Source: a virus | Lineage: Duplodnaviria; Heunggongvirae; Uroviricota; Caudoviricetes | Direction: 5' to 3' (one strand) | Length of the DNA: 64,000 nucleotides | Virus record (IMG/VR): IMGVR_UViG_3300010368_000011 | Coordinates: 1 to 64,000 of that record | Shown: positions 3,001 through 59,402 of the stretch, one piece after another | Position numbering within the stretch: position 1 is the first letter of the stretch | Layout of the letters: each line of letters opens with the position of its first letter | Notes under the pieces: model-generated | The model's database searches: none | Told to the model about the DNA's origin: nothing | The model's input: the letters and a program-made list of their open reading frames with translations, nothing else | Translations under genes and position numbers: made by a program

Positions 3001-5742
3001 AACATGTGGACGATCAGTACCATATACGCGTTTGTATATTCCGGTCCAATGACCCTCAAAACCAGCCGAAGTATAATTCCATGTCCACTTGTTAGCCTCG
3101 GAATAACCATCATTGGTTACAGGGTCTAACCCCTGATCGACATACCATCTTTCAAACTCACGACGAATCACTGTGGTATAATCTGAAGACTGGTAATCAA
3201 ATACTCCTGATCTATCAAAAGCCTTTAATTCAAAAATGTCGAAACCATTGAAGGTATGCTTTGTGTCATCGGTAAGATTTTTGACAATATCACTGGCCAC
3301 AGCTTTTTTAGTAACCCATGCGGAATTACTATAAGTCGCATACATCCCATGAGTTTTAGAATACACTCTATCACCTTCAGTTGGTGACAAGGCAGTATAA
3401 TCATTTACAATATTATCAACATCAGGCACATTGGTAATAATGGTTTTATTACCAATGTGATTCTTCAATGAGAATTGATGACCATCCAAAAATGCACTCT
3501 CGGCCACTGATTCTAATTTACGTTTCGCTGGTACAGAAGCAAAGAACCTATTTTCAAGATTAATGATGACATCATCGCGCTCATCATTATATGCTAACAT
3601 CACACTTCCATCATGTTTCAATATATAAGTTATTGAATTTGTTGTGAATTTCCGTGGAGTATAAGCGGGTGCGGCACCAGTTCTGGCGGCTGAAGGGGGA
3701 ATGAGTATTGGTGATACGGCTGCTGTCGTTTCGTTGACATACGTTCCCATCCCGGCATTCCAAAATGGACTCTCTTCAGTAGAGAAGAGAATGTTTTGAG
3801 TTAATACCTTGTCCACCATCTCTGTGGCAGTCAGTCCGTTCAATGTCCCTTGTGGAGTTGAATAACTACCCGCATCCCAAATGGTGCTCAATCGACGAAC
3901 AAACCGTTTCATGAATCGGTTATATTCAAATGACATATTACGAATGGCTTCTGCCAGATCATAATCATCGTTCTGAATTAATGATAAAGGAATCAATAAT
4001 GATCCTTCAGTATCGATAATCGTTGCACCAGAAACCGGATCACGACTGGTCCAACGATAATTATTATTCCCCAATGGAATACCATCAGCATTTGTGTCTA
4101 AAATATTTCTATAATGGTTGATTATATTACTTCTGCTGATACTAGTGATAATATCATGGTTCGGGTTATTACTCAGATTTAGAGGAACACCTTTCTGGGT
4201 TTGATCATACACGAGCGGTGTGGTTGATCGGTTCCATACTGAATGAAGCTGACCGGTCCATGTGTCCTTGAAAAACCTATAACCCAGAACAGATATATTA
4301 TTTTTAGTATAAACAGTACTTTCAAGAGTAAGGTCAAATATAATTTCACCAGTACTATCATATGTCAACGGAAATCCAAGAACAGTATCATCGGAATTAG
4401 TTCTTGTTTGTTTGTATTCAAATAACGAGTTACCGTTATAAGTGTCAACAAATGTTGATGCCTTGCTAATACCACCGTTATCAACCATGTATATTTCATA
4501 TTTCGGTTGAACATTATTCAATCCAAAAATCTTATAAGATGCAAGTGCATCAGAAATATCAGTTGTTTCGATTGAACTCCAATATTCAAGTAATGGTCTT
4601 TTTGATTGCTTACCATTGTATTCTGTTTTATCGATTGCACTTAAATCTTCAAAGTGAACCCACCAGTTTTCTTTCTGCCATGGATCATCATTAACGGTGA
4701 AATCAATTGCAGCATAACGATATACAGGATCATTACCGGTTGGAACACCAATCGCGGTCATGCTAGCTATATCATTATCAGAATCCAGAGTATCAAAATA
4801 TGGAATGGTTGAATAAACCAATGGTGCCCAACCCTCATTTGTATAAAGAAGGAATTTACGGGATGCTGGTGATCGAGAATCTTCCCAGATCATGCCTTCG
4901 ACCGGATTATCAGGTTCACGATTAGAAATAACCGGAACTTTTGATAACCACCGGCCTGCTTCACCACTATAATGATATATCACTGGTCGTTGATAGTTCT
5001 TACCGGTGCGAGCGATGTAAAGATATGTACCAGCCGCAATATCAGATGGAACAGCGTCTTCTGATGCGTATGGCGCGATATTAACCACCTGCCATGCAGT
5101 TCCATCCCATTGGTAAATTGTACGCTGTGCGTCTGTACAATCCTCGCGAAGATCGCCTGTGAGAGTACCGGTCGGTTCATAGCTAGCCAACGGTGCTAAT
5201 CGATCACTGGAATCCAGAATTACTGCTTTCTTGGTGAATGTTCCATTTGCTTCAACATAATGAAGAACCGTCTGCGATGCTGTTGGTTCTTTTACAATGT
5301 ATTCGCCAGTATCGTCCGCTGTTCCATCTCCGGTCCAGAAGTATTTGGAAAAATTAACCCATTTGTCAATATTAATTGGTGGAGTGAAAGAAAAGTAATC
5401 ACATTCAAATAATCTATTTTCATCACTGGTCAATCCACCATTGGCCAAGATGTGACCAATCAAGTCAGCATAAAAAGCACCATTGGCGACTGAACCATCT
5501 TTATTATATGAAACGACACATGGAGATAATTGAAATCGATCATCCAACGGGTTACTATTGGTGATAAATGGTGATCTATCTTTAGTGGATTGGGAGATAT
5601 CGGTGTCGTCACCGATTTGTCCTTCAATGCGTTCAAACGCTTCTGGTTCAAACGCTAAATCATCTGTAGCTCCTAGGAGACGCTTGTTTACATCTGTCTG
5701 GAATACTTTTGGTAGCGACGAAAATACTCTACGATCTTTCAT
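1..5742 (-). CDS. giant virion structural protein (tail-fibre/adhesin-like), >1900 aa, C-terminus runs off window start
   Basis: single uninterrupted minus-strand frame from ATG at 5742-5740 (first ATG after in-frame TAA, AAGG RBS) to position 1; no competing complete ORF >70 aa in 5.7 kb; aromatic YW/WW repeat motifs like those in the sheath gene at 50321. Confidence 0.7.
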   Translation of the reverse strand, partial: MKDRRVFSSLPKVFQTDVNKRLLGATDDLAFEPEAFERIEGQIGDDTDISQSTKDRSPFITNSNPLDDRFQLSPCVVSYNKDGSVANGAFYADLIGHILANGGLTSDENRLFECDYFSFTPPINIDKWVNFSKYFWTGDGTADDTGEYIVKEPTASQTVLHYVEANGTFTKKAVILDSSDRLAPLASYEPTGTLTGDLREDCTDAQRTIYQWDGTAWQVVNIAPYASEDAVPSDIAAGTYLYIARTGKNYQRPVIYHYSGEAGRWLSKVPVISNREPDNPVEGMIWEDSRSPASRKFLLYTNEGWAPLVYSTIPYFDTLDSDNDIASMTAIGVPTGNDPVYRYAAIDFTVNDDPWQKENWWVHFEDLSAIDKTEYNGKQSKRPLLEYWSSIETTDISDALASYKIFGLNNVQPKYEIYMVDNGGISKASTFVDTYNGNSLFEYKQTRTNSDDTVLGFPLTYDSTGEIIFDLTLESTVYTKNNISVLGYRFFKDTWTGQLHSVWNRSTTPLVYDQTQKGVPLNLSNNPNHDIITSISRSNIINHYRNILDTNADGIPLGNNNYRWTSRDPVSGATIIDTEGSLLIPLSLIQNDDYDLAEAIRNMSFEYNRFMKRFVRRLSTIWDAGSYSTPQGTLNGLTATEMVDKVLTQNILFSTEESPFWNAGMGTYVNETTAAVSPILIPPSAARTGAAPAYTPRKFTTNSITYILKHDGSVMLAYNDERDDVIINLENRFFASVPAKRKLESVAESAFLDGHQFSLKNHIGNKTIITNVPDVDNIVNDYTALSPTEGDRVYSKTHGMYATYSNSAWVTKKAVASDIVKNLTDDTKHTFNGFDIFELKAFDRSGVFDYQSSDYTTVIRREFERWYVDQGLDPVTNDGYSEANKWTWNYTSAGFEGHWTGIYKRVYGTDRPHVAPWEILGFTIKPAWWDDAYTVTSTDADGNGRYGSANAMWADLKTGTLIAAEGVTIPTKFLLSATAPIPVDVNGDLIDPVTAGVVSLDQLISPEQNWKYGDCSPIENSFHNSHLGPFAYALAGYLMKPGRYVEFLWSDYSFTIGMDTNLFGGPIKIDDGTLRRPKIDDLKIHSEDINYSNPGINAWVAENLNMSRINSKEFADTIRQSNVSLGWKTNGFIDKAATVIKTSSGVEIPFEDVQLTLHKGLPIENKFHSGIQILKRGSKYQVYGYDYTNSFFRINYGARPSLAGRTTFNETYTVQTGIDTYTLTKFKLGGTNDLAKFSVLVDGFKVKDQYINILSPTSFQIIDPNITTGQQLTAQLTTTYTNPSTRSRKFSIGETDYFYYETGTNNIIDYQYGHQFNSPQEVVEFIVDYGRNYTDNGWVYENDDWIDVAKRFAVWSQTATTGQIFVDVASGNSLNLQSTFGHMNNIQKLVYGGYSLLDIAGMPITDFDTYRFDGDISVKSPHLIFGLRATIVDIQHAVFISNRTRFNDLVYDPFTGLRQKRLEIKSLRTKEWAGRLDTPGYIASGDKLVPNFEKSTKDFIRYYDMLDPVSDPKFRDQAFNLYGWYYRDYAREMNINEVMSLEFHKNSIREKGTRRAVSGFSISKNNNIPLEILECWAWKEGEFGKTSFDNPVRFNILETDFNNRIQSVIFGSTNEPGVVTISDYDRSQTHAKWIVPPRQGNFKFPIKGNATSPDYDIRAVVLEGEVLDKKMFHYDPINGLHEPIAYSQIDIETSFDPAYYNKGVATTDEGYEWSSSRVGTIWWNTSNREYQDYLNQSLTLKESSENWGKLKSYAISSSAVANTISIKSVVEAGHNIVVNQSITVETRDGQRISGMVDVVSGNDVTYTLLNGPETVSILSNALLLSNIITITNRSIDIYEWIESRVPPTEYSGDEDDVIIFNAASPSYTEVTQSDGSRRYYFWVKNKRSTISGKLLSAYQISNQLYDPTVALIPW

Positions 5743-22978: not shown

Positions 22979-23059
22979 GGACACGTTCCCGAGCGGTCAA
23001 AGGGAATTGGCTTTTAACCAATTGCGCAAGCTTCGTGGGTTCGAATCCCACCGTGTTCA
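22979..23059 (+). tRNA. class-II-shaped (Tyr-like scaffold) tRNA with apparent UUU anticodon
   Basis: acceptor GGACACG/CGTGTTC, D-arm TTCCCGAGCGGTCAAAGGGA as in bacterial tRNA-Tyr, perfect anticodon stem AATTGG/CCAATT with loop CUUUUAA, 12-nt variable region, canonical T-arm, A73-CCA. Confidence 0.5.
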
Positions 23060-23062
23060 CCA

Positions 23063-31035: not shown

Positions 31036-31467
31036 ATGTCATTGCAACATCTTAAAGACGAAGCTCTAAAGGCTCGTAAAGAAAAGAACAAAGCCCGTGC
31101 TGATGTGCTGGTAACCATGTTGTCTGATGTCAATATGGCTGGCAAGAATGAGCAACGTGAAGCAACTGATGCCGATGTAGCTATTATTGCTAAACGCTTC
31201 ATGAAGAACCTTGAGAAGACCAAGGCGCTACGTTCGTCACCAGAACTTCTTGAAGAAATCAGTGTTGTTCAGGAATTCATGCCAAAGGTGGCGTCGGCAC
31301 TAAGTCTTGATGATGCTATCGTTAAGGTCTTGACAGAACATTCTGACAAGATTAAAAAAGAAAATATCGGTTTCCTTGTTGGCCAAGTTATGAGAGCCTG
31401 TCAGGGAAAAGCCAACCCGAAAACCGCGAATGAAATGATTACTGCAAAAATTTCAGAAGCCGGTTGA
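31036..31467 (+). CDS. GatB/YqeY-domain protein (YqeY-like, 143 aa)
   Basis: architecture and C-terminal IGFLVGQVMRACQGKANPKTANEMI match the YqeY signature G.vMk...GkAd...v..lv; N-terminal MSLQHLKDEALKARK resembles B. subtilis YqeY start. Confidence 0.65.
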   Translation: MSLQHLKDEALKARKEKNKARADVLVTMLSDVNMAGKNEQREATDADVAIIAKRFMKNLEKTKALRSSPELLEEISVVQEFMPKVASALSLDDAIVKVLTEHSDKIKKENIGFLVGQVMRACQGKANPKTANEMITAKISEAG

Positions 31468-50320: not shown

Positions 50321-52678
50321 ATGGCTACACTAAGTTCGCCTAACGTTCAAGTTAGCATCAATAACCAATCGCAATATTCGGAAACGTATCCAACTACGGT
50401 TCCGCTCATTGTTTTAGCATCACGGGCTGGTAAAACCAACCCTTCTGGAACAGGTATTGCGGCTGGAACGACTGAAAGTAATGTGGTCCGTTCGGTCACA
50501 TCGCAAAGAGAAGTGTTACAGCTTCTTGGAAATCCCACGTTTGTCACATCGGGTGGAAATCCCGTTCATGGACATGAATGTAATGAGTATGGTGTCTTTG
50601 CCCTCTGGAATTTGATGGCAACCTCATCGTTGGCTTATTATGTTCGTGCGGATATCGATCTAGATCAACTGCTCCCATCAACTACGGAACCAGTAAATCC
50701 ACCCGTGGATGGAACTTATTGGATTGATAGTGATGCAGTAGTCGGTGGTTTCTATCGTCGAAATGCTGCTAACTCTGCGTGGGAAGCTCTTACGTCAGCA
50801 GTATACACAACCACACCGGGTTCTGGTGACGGAGTTGAAGGTAATATTGCTCTCGATTATTCGACTGCTAACGGAACCGTCAAAGTTAAAACAACTGCAA
50901 CAGTTTGGGCTGATATCGGTGCAACTGATCTATCTTCAACTGCAATCGACTCTCGTACTGGTACGACTGCTGATATTTGGTTGTCCGAAACAGCTCCATT
51001 AGGTGCTGGTGCGAATGATTACTGGTGGAAAACAAATGCTGCATCTGGTGGTTATAACCTGAAGCTTTCGAAATATCGTGCAAGCGATGCTACATGGGTT
51101 GAAGTTATTCCTACTCGTTCAACAATTGAACCAACCGATAAAAGCACAACTTCAATTTGGGAAGACCTGTCTTCTCTAACTGATGATGGTTATCATCCGT
51201 TGAAGGTTGGTAACGGTAGTGCCTTTGTTGCACTAACAACTGTTATCCAAGCAGCTGCACCAACAACTGCGGCGACTGATGGTGATTATTGGTACTCTGA
51301 TGACATCACGGATTTCGGATTGTACAAAGAAGTATCTGATGAGTGGATTCCTATCACTACTGTAGGAACAGAAACCCCAACAGCAGTTCAAAAGGTTATT
51401 AGTGCTTCTGCACCGACAACTCCATCAACTGGTGCATTCTGGGTTGATGTTTCTGGTGATAATCTTGATAATTTCCCAGTAATCAAGCGTTATTCTGGCG
51501 CTGTATGGGAAGACATCACGTCTTCGGTTGATATGTCGGGTTCTTATACAGCACCAACATTGGTTGCTAATGGATCGTTGTGGTTAAACCTTGATGATGT
51601 AAGCACCAAGTGTACGGTCAAAGTCTATGACTCAACCTATCTTCCGGTAACTATTGCTTCCGGTGTTAAAGATACATGGGTTTCGGCTGATGGTCACTGG
51701 AAACCAATTGCAGGTTCACGCTTCTTGCGTAAGGCTCAACGTTATATGGTTTCTTCGAAGCTTCAGGCTGCATTAGCTAATGTTGATGAACTGAAATCAG
51801 AAGCTATCTTGTATCAGCTTATGGCTGCACCGGGATATCCTGAACTATATGACGAGATGGTGAATGTTTCAACTGCGATCAATGAGCGTGCTCATGTTAT
51901 TGCTGATGTTCCATTCAATATGATCCCGTCTGGTGTCGCTGCTGGCAAAGAAGTTACTGTAGCAGATTGGAAATCAAATACTGTTGGTGCTTCTGCAACT
52001 GGTGAAGAAGGTTTTGCTTCCTCGTCTAATGCAATCGCTTCGATGTATTATCCACATGCCTTGATGTCAAATGTCGATGGGGTCGATATCCTTGCACCTG
52101 CTTCTGCATATGTCATTCCGATGCTTGTTAGAACAGATAATAATTCTGGTCCATGGCAAGCGGCTATCGGTTATTCAAACGGTGTTATCAATAAGGTTTC
52201 ATCTGTTGGATACTTGACTGATGCCGGTGCTTACAAATTATTGAACATCACTGATGGTCATGCTGATATTCTATATAATAACCAAGTCAATATGGTTAAG
52301 AATATCTATCGTGTTGGTCTTCGTAATATGGGTAACAAAACAGTTTACGGTGGTTCTGAATTGACCAATCGTGTTAACGTTTCTCGCCTTGTTTCGAAAA
52401 TCCGTTACGAAATCCGTCAACTACTGATGCCTTATCTCGGTCAACCCAATCTGTCCGGTACATGGTCATCTGTTCGTAATACGGCCAATCGTTACCTAGC
52501 GGGTCTTTCTGCTGCAAATGCCTTAGAAGATTATGGTGTTCGCTGTGATGAAGAGATAAATACCGCAGAAAGAAGAGCAAGAAATGAACTATGGGTTGAG
52601 GTCGCTATTATTCCGGTAACAGCAACTGAATTCGTTTATGTTGAACTTCGTATTGATGAACCGGGTACAACTATTTAA
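50321..52678 (+). CDS. tail sheath protein (785 aa) with inserted YW-repeat domains
   Basis: C-terminal region (…YNNQVNMVKNIYRVGLRNMGNKTVYGGSELTNRVNVSRLV…RNELWVEVAIIPVTATEFVYVELRI) matches conserved sheath C-terminal domain; strong terminator follows. Confidence 0.75.
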   Translation: MATLSSPNVQVSINNQSQYSETYPTTVPLIVLASRAGKTNPSGTGIAAGTTESNVVRSVTSQREVLQLLGNPTFVTSGGNPVHGHECNEYGVFALWNLMATSSLAYYVRADIDLDQLLPSTTEPVNPPVDGTYWIDSDAVVGGFYRRNAANSAWEALTSAVYTTTPGSGDGVEGNIALDYSTANGTVKVKTTATVWADIGATDLSSTAIDSRTGTTADIWLSETAPLGAGANDYWWKTNAASGGYNLKLSKYRASDATWVEVIPTRSTIEPTDKSTTSIWEDLSSLTDDGYHPLKVGNGSAFVALTTVIQAAAPTTAATDGDYWYSDDITDFGLYKEVSDEWIPITTVGTETPTAVQKVISASAPTTPSTGAFWVDVSGDNLDNFPVIKRYSGAVWEDITSSVDMSGSYTAPTLVANGSLWLNLDDVSTKCTVKVYDSTYLPVTIASGVKDTWVSADGHWKPIAGSRFLRKAQRYMVSSKLQAALANVDELKSEAILYQLMAAPGYPELYDEMVNVSTAINERAHVIADVPFNMIPSGVAAGKEVTVADWKSNTVGASATGEEGFASSSNAIASMYYPHALMSNVDGVDILAPASAYVIPMLVRTDNNSGPWQAAIGYSNGVINKVSSVGYLTDAGAYKLLNITDGHADILYNNQVNMVKNIYRVGLRNMGNKTVYGGSELTNRVNVSRLVSKIRYEIRQLLMPYLGQPNLSGTWSSVRNTANRYLAGLSAANALEDYGVRCDEEINTAERRARNELWVEVAIIPVTATEFVYVELRIDEPGTTI

Positions 52679-52756: not shown

Positions 52757-54499
52757 ATGAACGAACTTAAAGAAAAAATCGAAAAAACCTTTAAGGTCAA
52801 TGGTCGTATCGTTTCTCGACGCCTGAATGATACATATATACAGACCAATAATCTTGAAGATTTGGTTAATACAATACACTCGACAACTTCATTTGTAAGT
52901 GAATGTACATTAGGCACACGTGTCAATATTATACTTAATGATATCAAACAAATTCCCGCCTGCAAGTTATCGGGTTGTGACAACTGTGTTCCTATAGCAG
53001 AAGCGGGTAACAATCTATTTCAAACATATTGTAGTAAAGAATGTTCTATGAAGAGTGCTTCTGAAGCTGCTCGTCTTGCCCTTAAAACTAAATATGGGGT
53101 TGATAATCCAATATATATTCCCGGTGTTAGGGAAAAAATCATGGAAACGAATAAAGCCAACAACGGTGGGGTGCATTTGTTTCAAACGGACGAGTATAAG
53201 AAACATATAAAAGCCCATTATCAACACGTCTACGGGGTGGATTTTCATACACAGGCCGAACAAATCAAAGATAAAATAAAGGTAACTGTTAGACAAAGCT
53301 ATGGTGTGGATAATCCATCACAGTCAGAAGCGGTAAAGGCATTAAAAATACAAACATCTATTGGTAATTACGGAATACCGAATCCGTCCTCCGATGAAGG
53401 TGTTAAAGCAAAACGCCAAGAAACCATGTTGTCCCGGTACAGTGTCCCATATTATTCACAATCGGATGATTACAAAAAACGTAATATAAAACCCGGAACC
53501 TATCTAGGATGGCATGATAAAGAGGACGAGATTAGACAACTGATAGATGAAGGTATTACTGGTGAACAGCTTAGTGCATACTTGGGTTTCGCTAATACCA
53601 GTAATTTATACAATACTGTTCTGAAGGAATTCAACATAAGTCCAGAAATGCTAAACCGAAACACAACAGGTCGATCTGTTCTGGAAGACAAAATAACTAC
53701 CATGATTTCCGAAATGTATGATGGTGAAATTATTCAATCATATAAATTACCTAATAACAAAGAGATAGATATATTTCTTCCCGCGTTACAAATAGGTATT
53801 GAAATAAATGGTTCCTATTGGCATTCCCATTTATTCGCTCCTAAGTCACAACATTTAGATAAAACGGAATATTGCGAGAGCATTGGTATTCAACTTATAC
53901 AGATATATGAACATGAAATTAATAATAAATCATCAAAGGTGATTCAATTAATAACTGGTTTGGTTAATGATAGAAAAACTATAGGTGCCAGACAAACAAC
54001 TTTTATGCGAATTGATAACTCAATGGCTGCAACCTTCTTTGATACCTATCATTTCGACGGGAAGCGTGGCGCATCGGAATGTTATGGGTTATTTCATAAC
54101 GATGAGTTGGTTATGTGTGCATCGTTTACAAAACATAAACAAGGAATGGAACTTATTAGATTAGCATCTAGTATAAGAGTGGTTGGTGGATTGTCCAAAA
54201 TATTAAAAAGAACTGGTTATACTAGTGTAGTATCATTTGCTAATCGATCTAGAACAAATAGAAATAATAATATATACTTAAAGTCCGGGTTTGTAGAAAC
54301 AAGAACTACTGCGCCTAATTATGTCTATATCTATGGAAAATATGTTAAATCTAGATACCAAGCCATGAAACATAAGTTGCCTGAATTGTTGGGTGATATG
54401 TTTGATAGTATGAAAAGCGAGAAACAGAATATGCTAGATAACAAATGGTTACAAGTATATGATTCTGGACAGATTTTCTATTCATGGAATAATGCTTGA
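52757..54499 (+). CDS. homing-endonuclease-like protein (580 aa): Zn-ribbon, tandem YGVDNP repeats, C-terminal Vsr/PD-(D/E)XK-like nuclease motif
   Basis: repeats KYGVDNP / SYGVDNP / NYGIPNP / RYSVPYY; C-terminal DIFLPALQIGIEINGSYWHS resembles Vsr/DUF559-type nucleases; inserted between sheath and downstream genes. Confidence 0.5.
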   Translation: MNELKEKIEKTFKVNGRIVSRRLNDTYIQTNNLEDLVNTIHSTTSFVSECTLGTRVNIILNDIKQIPACKLSGCDNCVPIAEAGNNLFQTYCSKECSMKSASEAARLALKTKYGVDNPIYIPGVREKIMETNKANNGGVHLFQTDEYKKHIKAHYQHVYGVDFHTQAEQIKDKIKVTVRQSYGVDNPSQSEAVKALKIQTSIGNYGIPNPSSDEGVKAKRQETMLSRYSVPYYSQSDDYKKRNIKPGTYLGWHDKEDEIRQLIDEGITGEQLSAYLGFANTSNLYNTVLKEFNISPEMLNRNTTGRSVLEDKITTMISEMYDGEIIQSYKLPNNKEIDIFLPALQIGIEINGSYWHSHLFAPKSQHLDKTEYCESIGIQLIQIYEHEINNKSSKVIQLITGLVNDRKTIGARQTTFMRIDNSMAATFFDTYHFDGKRGASECYGLFHNDELVMCASFTKHKQGMELIRLASSIRVVGGLSKILKRTGYTSVVSFANRSRTNRNNNIYLKSGFVETRTTAPNYVYIYGKYVKSRYQAMKHKLPELLGDMFDSMKSEKQNMLDNKWLQVYDSGQIFYSWNNA

Positions 54500-54524
54500 C
54501 AATAGTGTACAAATCATGTACAGT
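54496..54524 (+). promoter_or_regulatory. sigma70-like promoter (TTGACA-17-TACAGT)
   Basis: hexamers and spacing. Confidence 0.4.
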
Positions 54525-54545
54525 GTATATCCGAGGGAGATTGCT

Positions 54546-54953
54546 ATGAACCAAACCTGTGAAACTTATATCGATGTGCCTAATGGTCTTTGGGTTACCG
54601 CCCAAGGTATCGTCAAGGATATGATTACTCGTGCCCGTGATTCTGGCGAAGCGGTATGTGATGTCCGGGTTATTTCCGAACGACCATACCGGGAAGCGAT
54701 TGTCGTTGCATGGCCGGATGGTCGAGCCGTTTTGATGTGTTCCGCTATCATGATGATCCGTGATTGCAATCTTTCGCCAGATTATAAGATTGCCAAGTAT
54801 TACAAGAACCCTGTGTTCTGTACATCATGGATGAACAATACGGTCATTGATGCAAGTGGAAGTCGCAATGCCTTCATCTCGGAAGCGGAAACGTTGGTTT
54901 TTGATTATCCGGTTGTAACGTCACGCCGGTTCATGAATTCAGAATCCGCTTAA
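54546..54953 (+). CDS. hypothetical protein (135 aa)
   Basis: track ORF trimmed to ATG after GAGGGAGA RBS. Confidence 0.5.
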   Translation: MNQTCETYIDVPNGLWVTAQGIVKDMITRARDSGEAVCDVRVISERPYREAIVVAWPDGRAVLMCSAIMMIRDCNLSPDYKIAKYYKNPVFCTSWMNNTVIDASGSRNAFISEAETLVFDYPVVTSRRFMNSESA

Positions 54954-54964
54954 TAGGGAATGCC

Positions 54965-54994
54965 GGTTGGTCAGGCGATTAAAGCCTGACCAAC
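54965..54994. other. 11-bp perfect hairpin (GGTTGGTCAGGC/GCCTGACCAAC)
   Basis: inverted repeat between convergent small genes. Confidence 0.45.
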
Positions 54995-55075
54995 TGCAAA
55001 CACTGTGCCAGCTACCATTGAGCCGTATAATAGAACCATAATCAGTCCGTTGATATTCTGTTTTAAGAAACTCAT
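54971..55075 (-). CDS. possible 34-aa single-TM peptide, not in track
   Basis: GGAGAAAAGAAA RBS + ATG; hydrophobic MSFLKQNINGLIMVLLYGSMVAGTVFAVGQALIA. Confidence 0.3.
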   Translation of the reverse strand: MSFLKQNINGLIMVLLYGSMVAGTVFAVGQALIA

Positions 55076-55199
55076 TTTCTTTTCTCCGTTTTCCATACAT
55101 ACTTACTTAGTCTATCTTTATCGATAATCAATAAGCAAATCCGCAATTCCCCTATGCGTTTATGCGGGAACCTTCATGTGATAATCCCCTCTTAATGGG

Positions 55200-55228
55200 T
55201 TGACCCGGTTTATCCATACTGGTACAAT
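55200..55228 (+). promoter_or_regulatory. sigma70-like promoter (TTGACC-17-TACAAT)
   Basis: hexamers and spacing. Confidence 0.45.
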
Positions 55229-55249
55229 TATTAGGAAGTGGGATATATC

Positions 55250-55576
55250 ATGAGTGATAAAGATTATTTTTACTGGGTTCGAAACCCTTACGAATACGTT
55301 ACAGACAAGATGTGTCTTCCCGTTTCACAAGATAAATTCAGTAATTTGTTCAGCATGGGATCAAACTTTAATGGGTTTGATGCATGGGATCATTTGAGTT
55401 TTATCATGTGTCTTCCACAATGGGCGGATGAATATGTTAATTTCTCATTAGGACCGCTTGCTGTGGCTCTTAAAGAGAAAGACCTTATTCTCGTGTCTTA
55501 CACATGGAGTCGTTGGTCACGTTGTATGAACGAATTGATGCAGGTATCATTGATAGATCACTTCATCGTAAAATAG
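55250..55576 (+). CDS. hypothetical protein (108 aa), overlaps next gene by 73 nt in another frame
   Basis: trimmed to ATG after AGGAAGTGGG. Confidence 0.45.
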   Translation: MSDKDYFYWVRNPYEYVTDKMCLPVSQDKFSNLFSMGSNFNGFDAWDHLSFIMCLPQWADEYVNFSLGPLAVALKEKDLILVSYTWSRWSRCMNELMQVSLIDHFIVK

Positions 55577-55929
55577 AGTTTGATCTTCTTGAAAATTTTA
55601 ATGAACGTTGGGCAGCTTTAATACAAGCCGAAGAAATTCAATTAATAGAAGATGGGAATTTCCATAGTCCTACTCCATCATTCGAAATGGCATTTTGGGA
55701 ATCAGTCACCACGGTATGTCGTGAAGAGATGTCCGCATCAAGTGGTGATGAAATGGATGATATGATTGCTTCTCTTATCGAGAATAACATTGACCAGTGG
55801 AATGCCGCCAAACAAAAACCCAAATTGGCTAACTGGTTTGTTGGACAGGTAATGAAGGAATCTCAGGGCAAGGCTGATGCTGCCACGGTTCGCGAAAAAA
55901 TATCCACACTATTAAATCAAGATGGTTGA
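55504..55929 (+). CDS. GatB/YqeY-domain protein (second YqeY-like paralogue)
   Basis: C-terminal LANWFVGQVMKESQGKADAATVREKISTLL matches YqeY signature and the C-terminus of 31036..31467. Confidence 0.55.
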   Translation: MESLVTLYERIDAGIIDRSLHRKIEFDLLENFNERWAALIQAEEIQLIEDGNFHSPTPSFEMAFWESVTTVCREEMSASSGDEMDDMIASLIENNIDQWNAAKQKPKLANWFVGQVMKESQGKADAATVREKISTLLNQDG

Positions 55930-55965
55930 CAAGACTATCAGTGATAGGTATAAGTAAATCACTGC

Positions 55966-56040
55966 ATGGGTGTAGCTCAGTCTGGCTAGAGCATCGGCCT
56001 CCAAACCCGAGTGTCGGGGGTTCGAATCCCTCCACCCATG
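55966..56040 (+). tRNA. tRNA-Trp(CCA) (one C:C mismatch closing the anticodon stem)
   Basis: acceptor ATGGGTG/CACCCAT, D-arm GCTCAGTCTGGCTAGAGC, loop CTCCAAA, T-arm GGGGGTTCGAATCCCTC, G73-CCA. Confidence 0.7.
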
Positions 56041-56063
56041 CCAATTCCTTCAAGGAAAACATT

Positions 56064-56360
56064 ATGTTAAGCTTTTCGTTATTTGTATCCAATCCGTTTG
56101 TTGAAATGAAGAATAATATTCTTTTCGTTAAAGACTGGAAGGTTACAAAAAATTCTTCAATTGAAATTCAAGTAGATAGCTTCAGTTGGAATTTATCTAC
56201 CGGTGCATCATTACGTATTACTGGTCGAAAAACCATGCATCGTGGTGTTGATTTTGGAATATCTTTTCTTGGTGGCTCTATTTCATTTTGTCATTATGAT
56301 AACCGTCATCGCTATGATGGTGTCGAAGATGATTATGATGATTATGATAAAGTCGATTGA
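56064..56360 (+). CDS. hypothetical protein (98 aa)
   Basis: track ORF trimmed past the embedded tRNA to ATG after AAGGAAAA. Confidence 0.45.
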   Translation: MLSFSLFVSNPFVEMKNNILFVKDWKVTKNSSIEIQVDSFSWNLSTGASLRITGRKTMHRGVDFGISFLGGSISFCHYDNRHRYDGVEDDYDDYDKVD

Positions 56361-56533
56361 TGTTCAAACCAACCAATAGAGAAAAATCACGAGAACCTAG
56401 AGGCCAGAAATATTGGTGCTCGTGTTGTGATCATGATAAAATATCTGCTGGTTCTAAGTGTGACCATTGTGGTATTAGGAACGGTGGTAAGATACGCGGT
56501 AAAGCTGGCAAGCCAACCCCGATGGGAGATTAA
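56360..56533 (+). CDS. possible small zinc-ribbon protein (57 aa, CxxC...CxxC), not in track
   Basis: ATG overlapping upstream TGA. Confidence 0.3.
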   Translation: MFKPTNREKSREPRGQKYWCSCCDHDKISAGSKCDHCGIRNGGKIRGKAGKPTPMGD

Positions 56534-58678: not shown

Positions 58679-58951
58679 TTAACCCCGTTTGTACGGGGTT
58701 AATTTTAATCGGTCCATTCCTTCTACAAGCACTTCGATTTCGGTTGAGAATTTAATTGTCTCTTCCTCTTTGATCTTTTGTTGAATAGGTTTCATCCGTT
58801 CATTAACAAGCTGATCAATCTCGTTGCGGATAGATTTTAATCTCGCATCCATGCGGAAGTATTCGGGCGGTGTGCACTCATTGCAACTACCAAAACCAAT
58901 ACCCATGGATGCGCCGCAGTTATTGCATTCATAATGTGCCATTGTATTCAT
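58679..58951 (-). CDS. small zinc-ribbon protein (about 90 aa)
   Basis: CNNC...CNEC motifs; start trimmed to avoid overlap with 58929..59402. Confidence 0.4.
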   Translation of the reverse strand: MNTMAHYECNNCGASMGIGFGSCNECTPPEYFRMDARLKSIRNEIDQLVNERMKPIQQKIKEEETIKFSTEIEVLVEGMDRLKLTPYKRG

Positions 58952-59402
58952 ACCAATCGTTAGCAAACATATCGACTTGAGATGGTGACCATACCATGAT
59001 CGATCCATTGGATAAAGTCATATCGATATGAGCATTATAATCAACACTGACGCCATCACCAAGGATGGACAGAAGCGGTTCACGGTTCACCGTAAAGGTT
59101 GATCCATCCACCTTGAAAATGAATGGTGATCGTTCTTCATCTAACCAAGCGCGACGAGAAACCCGCTTGCCTTCTTTAACAGCAGCGAGTGCCCATTCCA
59201 TCGTGTTGCTATAGCGCTTTGCAGTTTCAATCGTCACACCATGTAATTCCTTGCGATCAATCACGAAAAGATCGAAACTATCAGGACACGCGAACTGAAC
59301 ATAGTTCACATTCTTTTCATCATATCGATCCAGCATATAGAAAATTTCATATTCATCCGTTAGGATGGTTATGTTATCTGATGATATATATTCATTTAAC
59401 AT
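58929..59402 (-). CDS. hypothetical protein (157 aa)
   Basis: ORF track. Confidence 0.5.
   Translation of the reverse strand: MLNEYISSDNITILTDEYEIFYMLDRYDEKNVNYVQFACPDSFDLFVIDRKELHGVTIETAKRYSNTMEWALAAVKEGKRVSRRAWLDEERSPFIFKVDGSTFTVNREPLLSILGDGVSVDYNAHIDMTLSNGSIMVWSPSQVDMFANDWYEYNGTL

Follow-up and report, generated by a model that had tools for sequence, protein, structure and literature searches.

A GatB/YqeY-type gene of a jumbo phage, divided between two overlapping reading frames by a probable mutational frameshift

Positions 55250-55929 of the window (the whole stretch of DNA analysed here, 64,000 nucleotides from the IMG/VR virus record IMGVR_UViG_3300010368_000011) hold a single jumbo-phage gene whose reading frame is broken, and the cause of its split into ORF1 and ORF2 is probably a mutational frameshift. 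We regard the single-gene ancestry, the position of the break, the domain homology and the existence of the break in several assemblies as established. Gene callers annotate two genes at 55250-55929, and the lesson for annotation is that these should be one disrupted gene. It belongs to a known type of protein, here in disrupted form, and its subfamily is uncatalogued in PHROGs but recognisably like the C-terminal part of GatB. The features referred to below are the following.

55200-55228, + strand: sigma-70-like promoter candidate 5′ of the split gene (TTGACC, 17 nt spacer, TG-TACAAT)
55250-55576, + strand: ORF1, 108 aa from ATG 55250 (GTG 55238 is open too), in the frame with position mod 3 = 2
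55250-55480, + strand: native part of ORF1, the N-terminal 77 codons of the ancestral gene
55478-55485, + strand: frameshift junction, AAA GA/C CT, where the conserved reading goes from frame 2 to frame 1
55481-55576, + strand: out-of-frame tail of ORF1, 31 codons (DLILVSYTWSRWSRCMNELMQVSLIDHFIVK) and the stop codon TAG at 55574
55480-55929, + strand: C-terminal part of the ancestral gene, about 149 codons in the -1 frame, with the remaining helical subdomain and the YqeY/GatB tail
55504-55929, + strand: ORF2 (copy 2), 141 aa from ATG 55504 or 135 aa from TTG 55522, in frame 1
55966-56043, + strand: tRNA-Trp (CCA), 36 nt 3′ of the split gene, Rfam tRNA score 60.8 bits
31036-31467, + strand: copy 1, an intact stand-alone YqeY-type protein of 143 aa
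31692-32807, + strand: tRNA cluster Phe, Asp, Ile, Glu, Arg, His, Arg, beginning 224 nt 3′ of copy 1

The two ORFs overlap by 73 nt (55504-55576), with ORF2 in the -1 frame relative to ORF1, just as an earlier sequence-only reading of the window had described. Using an artificial fusion of ORF1 and ORF2 as the query, a protein search returned P0001, which is ORF2 called from TTG 55522, and P0002, a 230 aa protein from another assembly that spans 97% of the fusion at 49% identity in a single frame. A second gene-caller version of ORF2, the JGI/IMG record P0268, is identical to that of the window. When P0002 was aligned to the window by tblastn, residues 5-82 matched 55259-55492 in frame 2 (53.8% identity) and residues 83-229 matched 55480-55914 in frame 1 (48.3% identity). 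The two HSPs abut at 55480-55492 with a change from frame 2 to frame 1, a pattern typical of a frameshift. In the 73 nt that the ORFs share, conservation is found in the ORF2 frame only (LYERIDAGIIDRSLHRKIEFDLL in the window and LYKEIDEGRIDKKMHRDIEVDLL in P0002), and the tail of ORF1 (DLILVSYTWSRW...IVK) has no counterpart in any relative aligned. As the frameshift lies inside one gene, the overlap is best read as a by-product of the mutation.

The break can be placed closely. A codon alignment with the contig L001 (Logan SRR25180568), which carries a fused gene, sets AAA GAA CAC GAA GCG CCA TTG against AAA GAG AAA GA- CCT TAT in the window, leaving a 3n+1 gap at 55481-55483. The 5′ limit of the junction is set by a TAA of the -1 frame (55471-55473), and the window sequence around the junction reads ...GAGAAAGACCTTAT.... 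An exhaustive HMMER search with P0002 as the query found about 16 more distant full-length relatives of 200-360 aa, all of them continuous across the junction, where relatives carry the motif NF(I/S)LGPLAxxLKExxxxF. The split is therefore seen in none of 17 relatives (P0002 and these 16). The wider family came from exhaustive HMMER alone, the word-index protein searches having returned only P0001, P0002 and P0003. Read-through of the ORF1 TAG was considered and rejected, as the ORF1 frame after the stop is junk with the next stop within 17 codons. The 31-codon out-of-frame run before the stop is itself unremarkable at the base composition of the window (about 0.1 by our estimate).

The sequence-only reading had placed a GatB/YqeY domain in both 31036-31467 and 55504-55929, and a search with PF02637 (GatB_Yqey, Pfam gathering cut-off 27 bits) bears this out. 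Copy 1 scores 38.7 bits (1.2e-9, profile positions 4-148) and ORF2 55.3 bits (9.1e-15), the latter over aa 77-136 only, corresponding to profile positions 86-147 of 148. P0002 scores 58.5 bits. For copy 2 the whole domain is not found in one frame, as its helix 1 lies in ORF1, in the other frame. The native part of ORF1 consists of a family-specific helical extension followed by NFSLGPLAVALKEK, helix 1 of the GatB/YqeY helical subdomain; the frameshift lies about 20 residues into the domain. Since NFSLGPLAVALKEK in ORF1 is helix 1 of the domain, the break is inside the GatB/YqeY helical subdomain and not between domains. The earlier idea that a frameshift would fuse a new N-terminal domain to ORF2 is not supported, as ORF1 is the family's normal N-terminus and already holds the first helix of the domain. 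ORF1 on its own has no Pfam match and no PHROG match.

Profile comparisons extend the match to the family as a whole. By hhalign, the family aligns to GatB with 99.8% probability (E 5.7e-28), P0002 aa 57-230 corresponding to GatB 340-481, which is the entire helical-plus-tail GatB_Yqey region. A PDB profile search matched 3h0l_B and 3al0_B collinearly (profile 60-120 to GatB 343-403 and 159-222 to GatB 410-479), and TIGR00133 aligned to P0002 aa 72-229, with a score of 30-38 bits against an equivalog cut-off of 314.8. An AlphaFold model from an 18-sequence alignment is confident and all-helical (pLDDT 84.5, pTM 0.71), places the junction in the loop after helix 57-77 and has GatB, YqeY and the GlnRS N-terminal domain as its best fold matches; a model from 7 sequences (pLDDT 52) was unusable. 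No match to GatB_N (PF02934), the catalytic cradle, was found in copy 1, copy 2 or P0002. None of 18 family members (P0002 and the P0005-P0082 family) matched a PHROG at E 1e-3, and YqeY PF09424 did not match copy 2, P0002 or the 16 relatives. Judged by its sequence, the intact family protein is a free-standing C-terminal GatB module with a helical extension of about 55 aa and no catalytic domain. Without the GatB catalytic domain the family cannot be an amidotransferase, despite names like 'amidotransferase subunit B', and for the same reason this label is misleading for the relatives. One family member is named 'amidotransferase B subunit' by JGI, though the catalytic domain is missing.

The helical and tail domains of GatB bind the tRNA core, in the D-loop and variable-loop region (PMC2811023), and the YqeY domain of Deinococcus GlnRS increases the affinity of the enzyme for tRNA-Gln (PMC1865053). 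Free YqeY has no settled cellular role (PMC1865053, PMC12054373). By analogy with these proteins, we infer that the intact family protein acts as a free-standing tRNA-binding factor of large phages. It aligns collinearly with the C-terminal domains of GatB (S. aureus 3IP4, Aquifex 3H0L) at about 340-481, and its tail is 45-60% identical to bacterial GatB tails, but it differs from GatB in lacking GatB_N, in its extra N-terminal helical extension of about 55 aa, and in being free-standing and phage-encoded. Compared with stand-alone YqeY (B. subtilis 1NG6, C. jejuni 8XJE), copy 2 would have about 80 aa more if it were intact, and in this phage its frame is broken. It also differs from the phrog_1460 'tRNA amidotransferase' proteins (PA5oct gp310, pf16 gp65) in having no YqeY Pfam or PHROG match. 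The YqeY-like domains of GlnRS (C-terminal in D. radiodurans, N-terminal in yeast, 3TL4) act in cis only, fused to the synthetase, whereas the phage protein is free-standing. The family delineated here as a by-product, which occurs on large phage-like contigs and is missing from PHROGs, has members with a whole GatB C-terminal module of the tRNA-binding type and an N-terminal extension, and could be studied alongside phage tRNA arrays.

The frame in the window's phage was probably shifted by a 3n+1 deletion at about 55481-55483, in its simplest form the loss of one base from an ancestral ...AAA GAN CCT TAT.... The precise mutation stands apart from the points regarded as established and is something we infer; with no relative found above about 50% identity, the same holds for the ancestral sequence in its exact form and for when the mutation happened. 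Translation from ATG 55250 yields 77 native residues followed by 31 out-of-frame residues up to TAG 55574. To call the remaining 149 or so codons in the -1 frame as ORF2, a gene caller has to start at an internal ATG or TTG without a typical ribosome-binding site. At best, the gene would be expressed as two fragments, cut in the loop that follows helix 1. The split gene appears to be co-transcribed with tRNA-Trp from the promoter candidate at 55200, given that no terminator was found between the two. The split copy has most likely been inactivated and lost its function, and among the outcomes of a mutational frameshift a dead copy is more likely than the others.

The state of the two halves can be read in more than one way. 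Neither has a lesion besides the single frameshift, and all nearly invariant family residues are kept. Otherwise intact halves would fit a very recent mutation, and would fit a tolerated or functional split equally well. The frameshift is fixed in every assembly seen, suggesting that it is not obviously deleterious. The split copy says little on biology unless it is expressed.

The alternative that survives best, though we consider it unlikely, is a functional fission of the gene. Here ORF1, from its own promoter and ribosome-binding site, and ORF2, from ATG 55504 or TTG 55522, would both be translated and would associate without a covalent link to give a functional tRNA-binding module, or ORF2 would work alone as a protein of YqeY size. 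At 135-141 aa ORF2 is close to stand-alone YqeY in length and keeps the whole tail domain, neither half has further lesions, and the frameshift is present in all assemblies. In the model the break falls in a predicted inter-helix loop, a spot where split proteins sometimes reassemble. However, ORF2 is without helix 1 of the helical subdomain, ORF1 ends in 31 junk residues, and none of the 17 relatives is split. The candidate starts of ORF2 also count against it. The usual motif, GGA(G) at 5-10 nt upstream, is found on about half of the phage's long ATG-start ORFs and is missing at both starts, ATG 55504 having no GGA(G) motif and TTG 55522 a GGAG 12 nt away. ORF1 is better equipped, with a GGA motif 6 nt 5′ of its ATG and the promoter candidate at 55200-55228, which as a consensus match only has 10 of 12 positions and the TG extension.

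Somewhat less probable again is a product that is still a GatB-CTD/YqeY-like tRNA-binding protein, either made of two pieces with helix 1 supplied in trans by ORF1 or made at full length through non-canonical recoding at GAG AAA GAC. If this were true, the phage would regulate how much it makes of a tRNA-binding factor whose gene is co-transcribed with tRNA-Trp.

It is very improbable that the break is a sequencing or assembly artefact and that the true phage gene is intact. One-base indels are the commonest type of consensus error, and the copies found are nearly identical and could share a systematic error. However, an identical junction is present in a contig of SRR5216425 (100% over 4 kb) and in ERZ27275010 and ERZ3612590 (909 bp, 4 SNPs), so that no fewer than three further data sets and assemblers yield the junction, and in one of these four SNPs occur elsewhere; an assembly artefact is accordingly unlikely. 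The JGI/IMG record of the ORF2 product, P0268, is identical to ORF2 of the window, although it is a protein record and not a contig. Nor is the junction a long homopolymer, the only run of four or more being at 55570. These assemblies represent essentially one strain and are uninformative on evolutionary conservation.

A programmed -1 ribosomal frameshift or other recoding by which the full-length protein would be made in a fixed proportion, like that of dnaX or the tail chaperone G/GT, is a shade less credible still. In its favour are the -1 relation of the frames, the stability of the frameshift across assemblies, and an A AAA TAG at 55570-55576 that could in principle permit P-site slippage at the stop codon. 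The overlap of the ORFs, their -1 relation and the possibility of a longer fusion are also what the gene shares with known programmed -1 frameshifting (dnaX A AAA AAG, phage lambda G/GT), but the split gene is without their heptamer, stimulator and conserved shift. The slippery heptamer that the sequence-only reading proposed to look for in the overlap did not turn up, with no X XXY YYZ found anywhere between 55474 and 55576, the stretch in which a shift would be permissible. That stretch has a single A AAA site, the one at 55570, which abuts the stop codon, and slippage there would swap about 30 conserved residues for the junk tail. The shift would be needed at 55478-55483 (GAG AAA GAC), where -1 re-pairing is poor and there is no heptamer. 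Downstream there is no stable RNA structure, the folds of 55484-55570 and 55577-55670 being no more stable than shuffled sequences (z +0.77 and +0.60), and Rfam had no match besides tRNAs. The protein is encoded in a single frame in the closest relative and 16 others, and the frameshift is common only to near-identical copies of the same phage. The lack of recoding signals and of a shared shift, together with the weak ORF2 starts as against the promoter-like site and GGA of ORF1, favours plain mutation. Of the two kinds of frameshift that the earlier reading allowed, the mutational one thus gains support from the fused relatives, and the programmed one loses it for want of a slippery site, a structure or a shared shift.

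That reading had also left room for two independent genes should the orthologues prove to be split, and this refutation failed because all relatives are fused. Two independent genes that merely overlap can be practically dismissed, since only the two-gene calls of the gene callers speak for them and they are refuted by the fused relatives, with both parts in one ORF in every relative and the tail of ORF1 unconserved.

Copy 1 is a different kind of protein. It matches PF09424 (YqeY) at 38.9 bits (1.1e-9, positions 2-142 of 143, cut-off 27) and phrog_1460 'tRNA amidotransferase' at 6.1e-20, and has homologues in PA5oct-like jumbo phages at 28% identity. The two copies align over their C-terminal 63 aa only (30% identity, E 4e-7), sharing the motif LVGQVMRACQGKA in copy 1 and FVGQVMKESQGKA in copy 2, and a comparison of their profiles found nothing past this shared tail. 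The term paralogues, used in the earlier reading, is too strong for members of different subfamilies with a tail of about 60 aa alone in common. The copies are distant homologues and not recent duplicates.

Both copies do lie just 5′ of tRNA genes, as had been noted, with gaps of 224 nt to tRNA-Phe and 36 nt to tRNA-Trp. ARAGORN finds 15 tRNAs in the window, where the chance that a + strand position is so close 5′ of a tRNA is 3.5% (225 nt or less) and 0.75% (37 nt or less), so the double tRNA adjacency in the window exceeds chance. In L001 the fused gene begins 18 nt after tRNA-Thr, with 7 tRNAs in 8.3 kb. No tRNAs were found at the family loci on contigs L085-L087, and none is annotated within 3 kb of the YqeY genes of RL2RES and PA5oct. 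The adjacency is present here and in the closest relative and is not conserved across the wider family. Adjacency of YqeY and tRNA genes was already known from phage pf16 gp65 (PMC5587285). Also in the window, a tRNA-Lys(TTT) at 22979-23062 (+ strand) is 84 nt, unusually long for class I, and directly follows a 77-nt tRNA-Lys(CTT). In L001, a tRNA at 4380-4455 has a CTA anticodon, that of an amber suppressor (ARAGORN labels it 'Pyl'); its neighbours are six other tRNAs and a gene for a PTH2 peptidyl-tRNA hydrolase (5142-5540). Going by this CTA tRNA, it is possible that TAG is reassigned or suppressed in the L001 phage.

No close relative of the window's phage has been sequenced, and its relationship to Rak2-, Atu_ph07- and PA5oct-like jumbo phages is distant. 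Neither a megablast of 54400-56400 against GenBank phages nor a tblastn of ORF1 against phages returned a match, and no closer relative emerged from scans of IMG/VR by protein, alignment and junction DNA pattern. The tail sheath, tail tube, endolysin-like and virion proteins in the window are distantly like those of Atu_ph07, PA5oct and other jumbo phages and mark the window as part of a large myovirus-type phage. A 317-kb contig carries the same phage proteins. The metagenome scan was dominated by bacterial GatB tails, and its candidates L034, L047, L055 and L007 were rejected as ordinary bacterial gatB, with BLASTP significant in the tail only.

The family contigs retrieved are phage-like and range from 31 to 608 kb. 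Genes for ribonucleotide reductase, dCMP deaminase, LemA, DNA ligase and GIY-YIG endonuclease are neighbours of the family gene. Ribonucleotide reductase genes are near it in L085 and L087, the dCMP deaminase gene adjoins it in L086 and is one gene off in L085 and L087, and genes for LemA and a saccharopine-dehydrogenase-like protein adjoin it in L085 and L086. The setting in L085-L087 is a nucleotide-metabolism neighbourhood and not a tRNA one. A conserved synteny or translation-gene module was rejected, as L001 and the window have only this gene in common.

The small ORFs that flank the split gene in the window have no Pfam matches. Further upstream, a homing-endonuclease-like ORF of 580 aa (52757-54499, + strand; phrog_3339 at 1.8e-101, and DUF7487 of Pfam according to the precomputed annotation) is an insertion immediately 3′ of the tail sheath gene (50321-52678). 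Within 54965-55096, between a + strand gene ending at 54953 and a minus-strand ORF, there is a perfect 11-bp hairpin (GTTGGTCAGGC ... GCCTGACCAAC) that looks like a bidirectional terminator, though it is without a T-run. The minus-strand ORF (54971-55096) encodes 41 aa, the C-terminal half of which is hydrophobic and membrane-like. On the 3′ side of the split gene, a minus-strand ORF of 157 aa (58929-59402) has a Tad2-like (Thoeris anti-defence 2) domain, which the precomputed annotation lists too, matching PF11195 at 3.6e-15 and 56.7 bits with a cut-off of 25.
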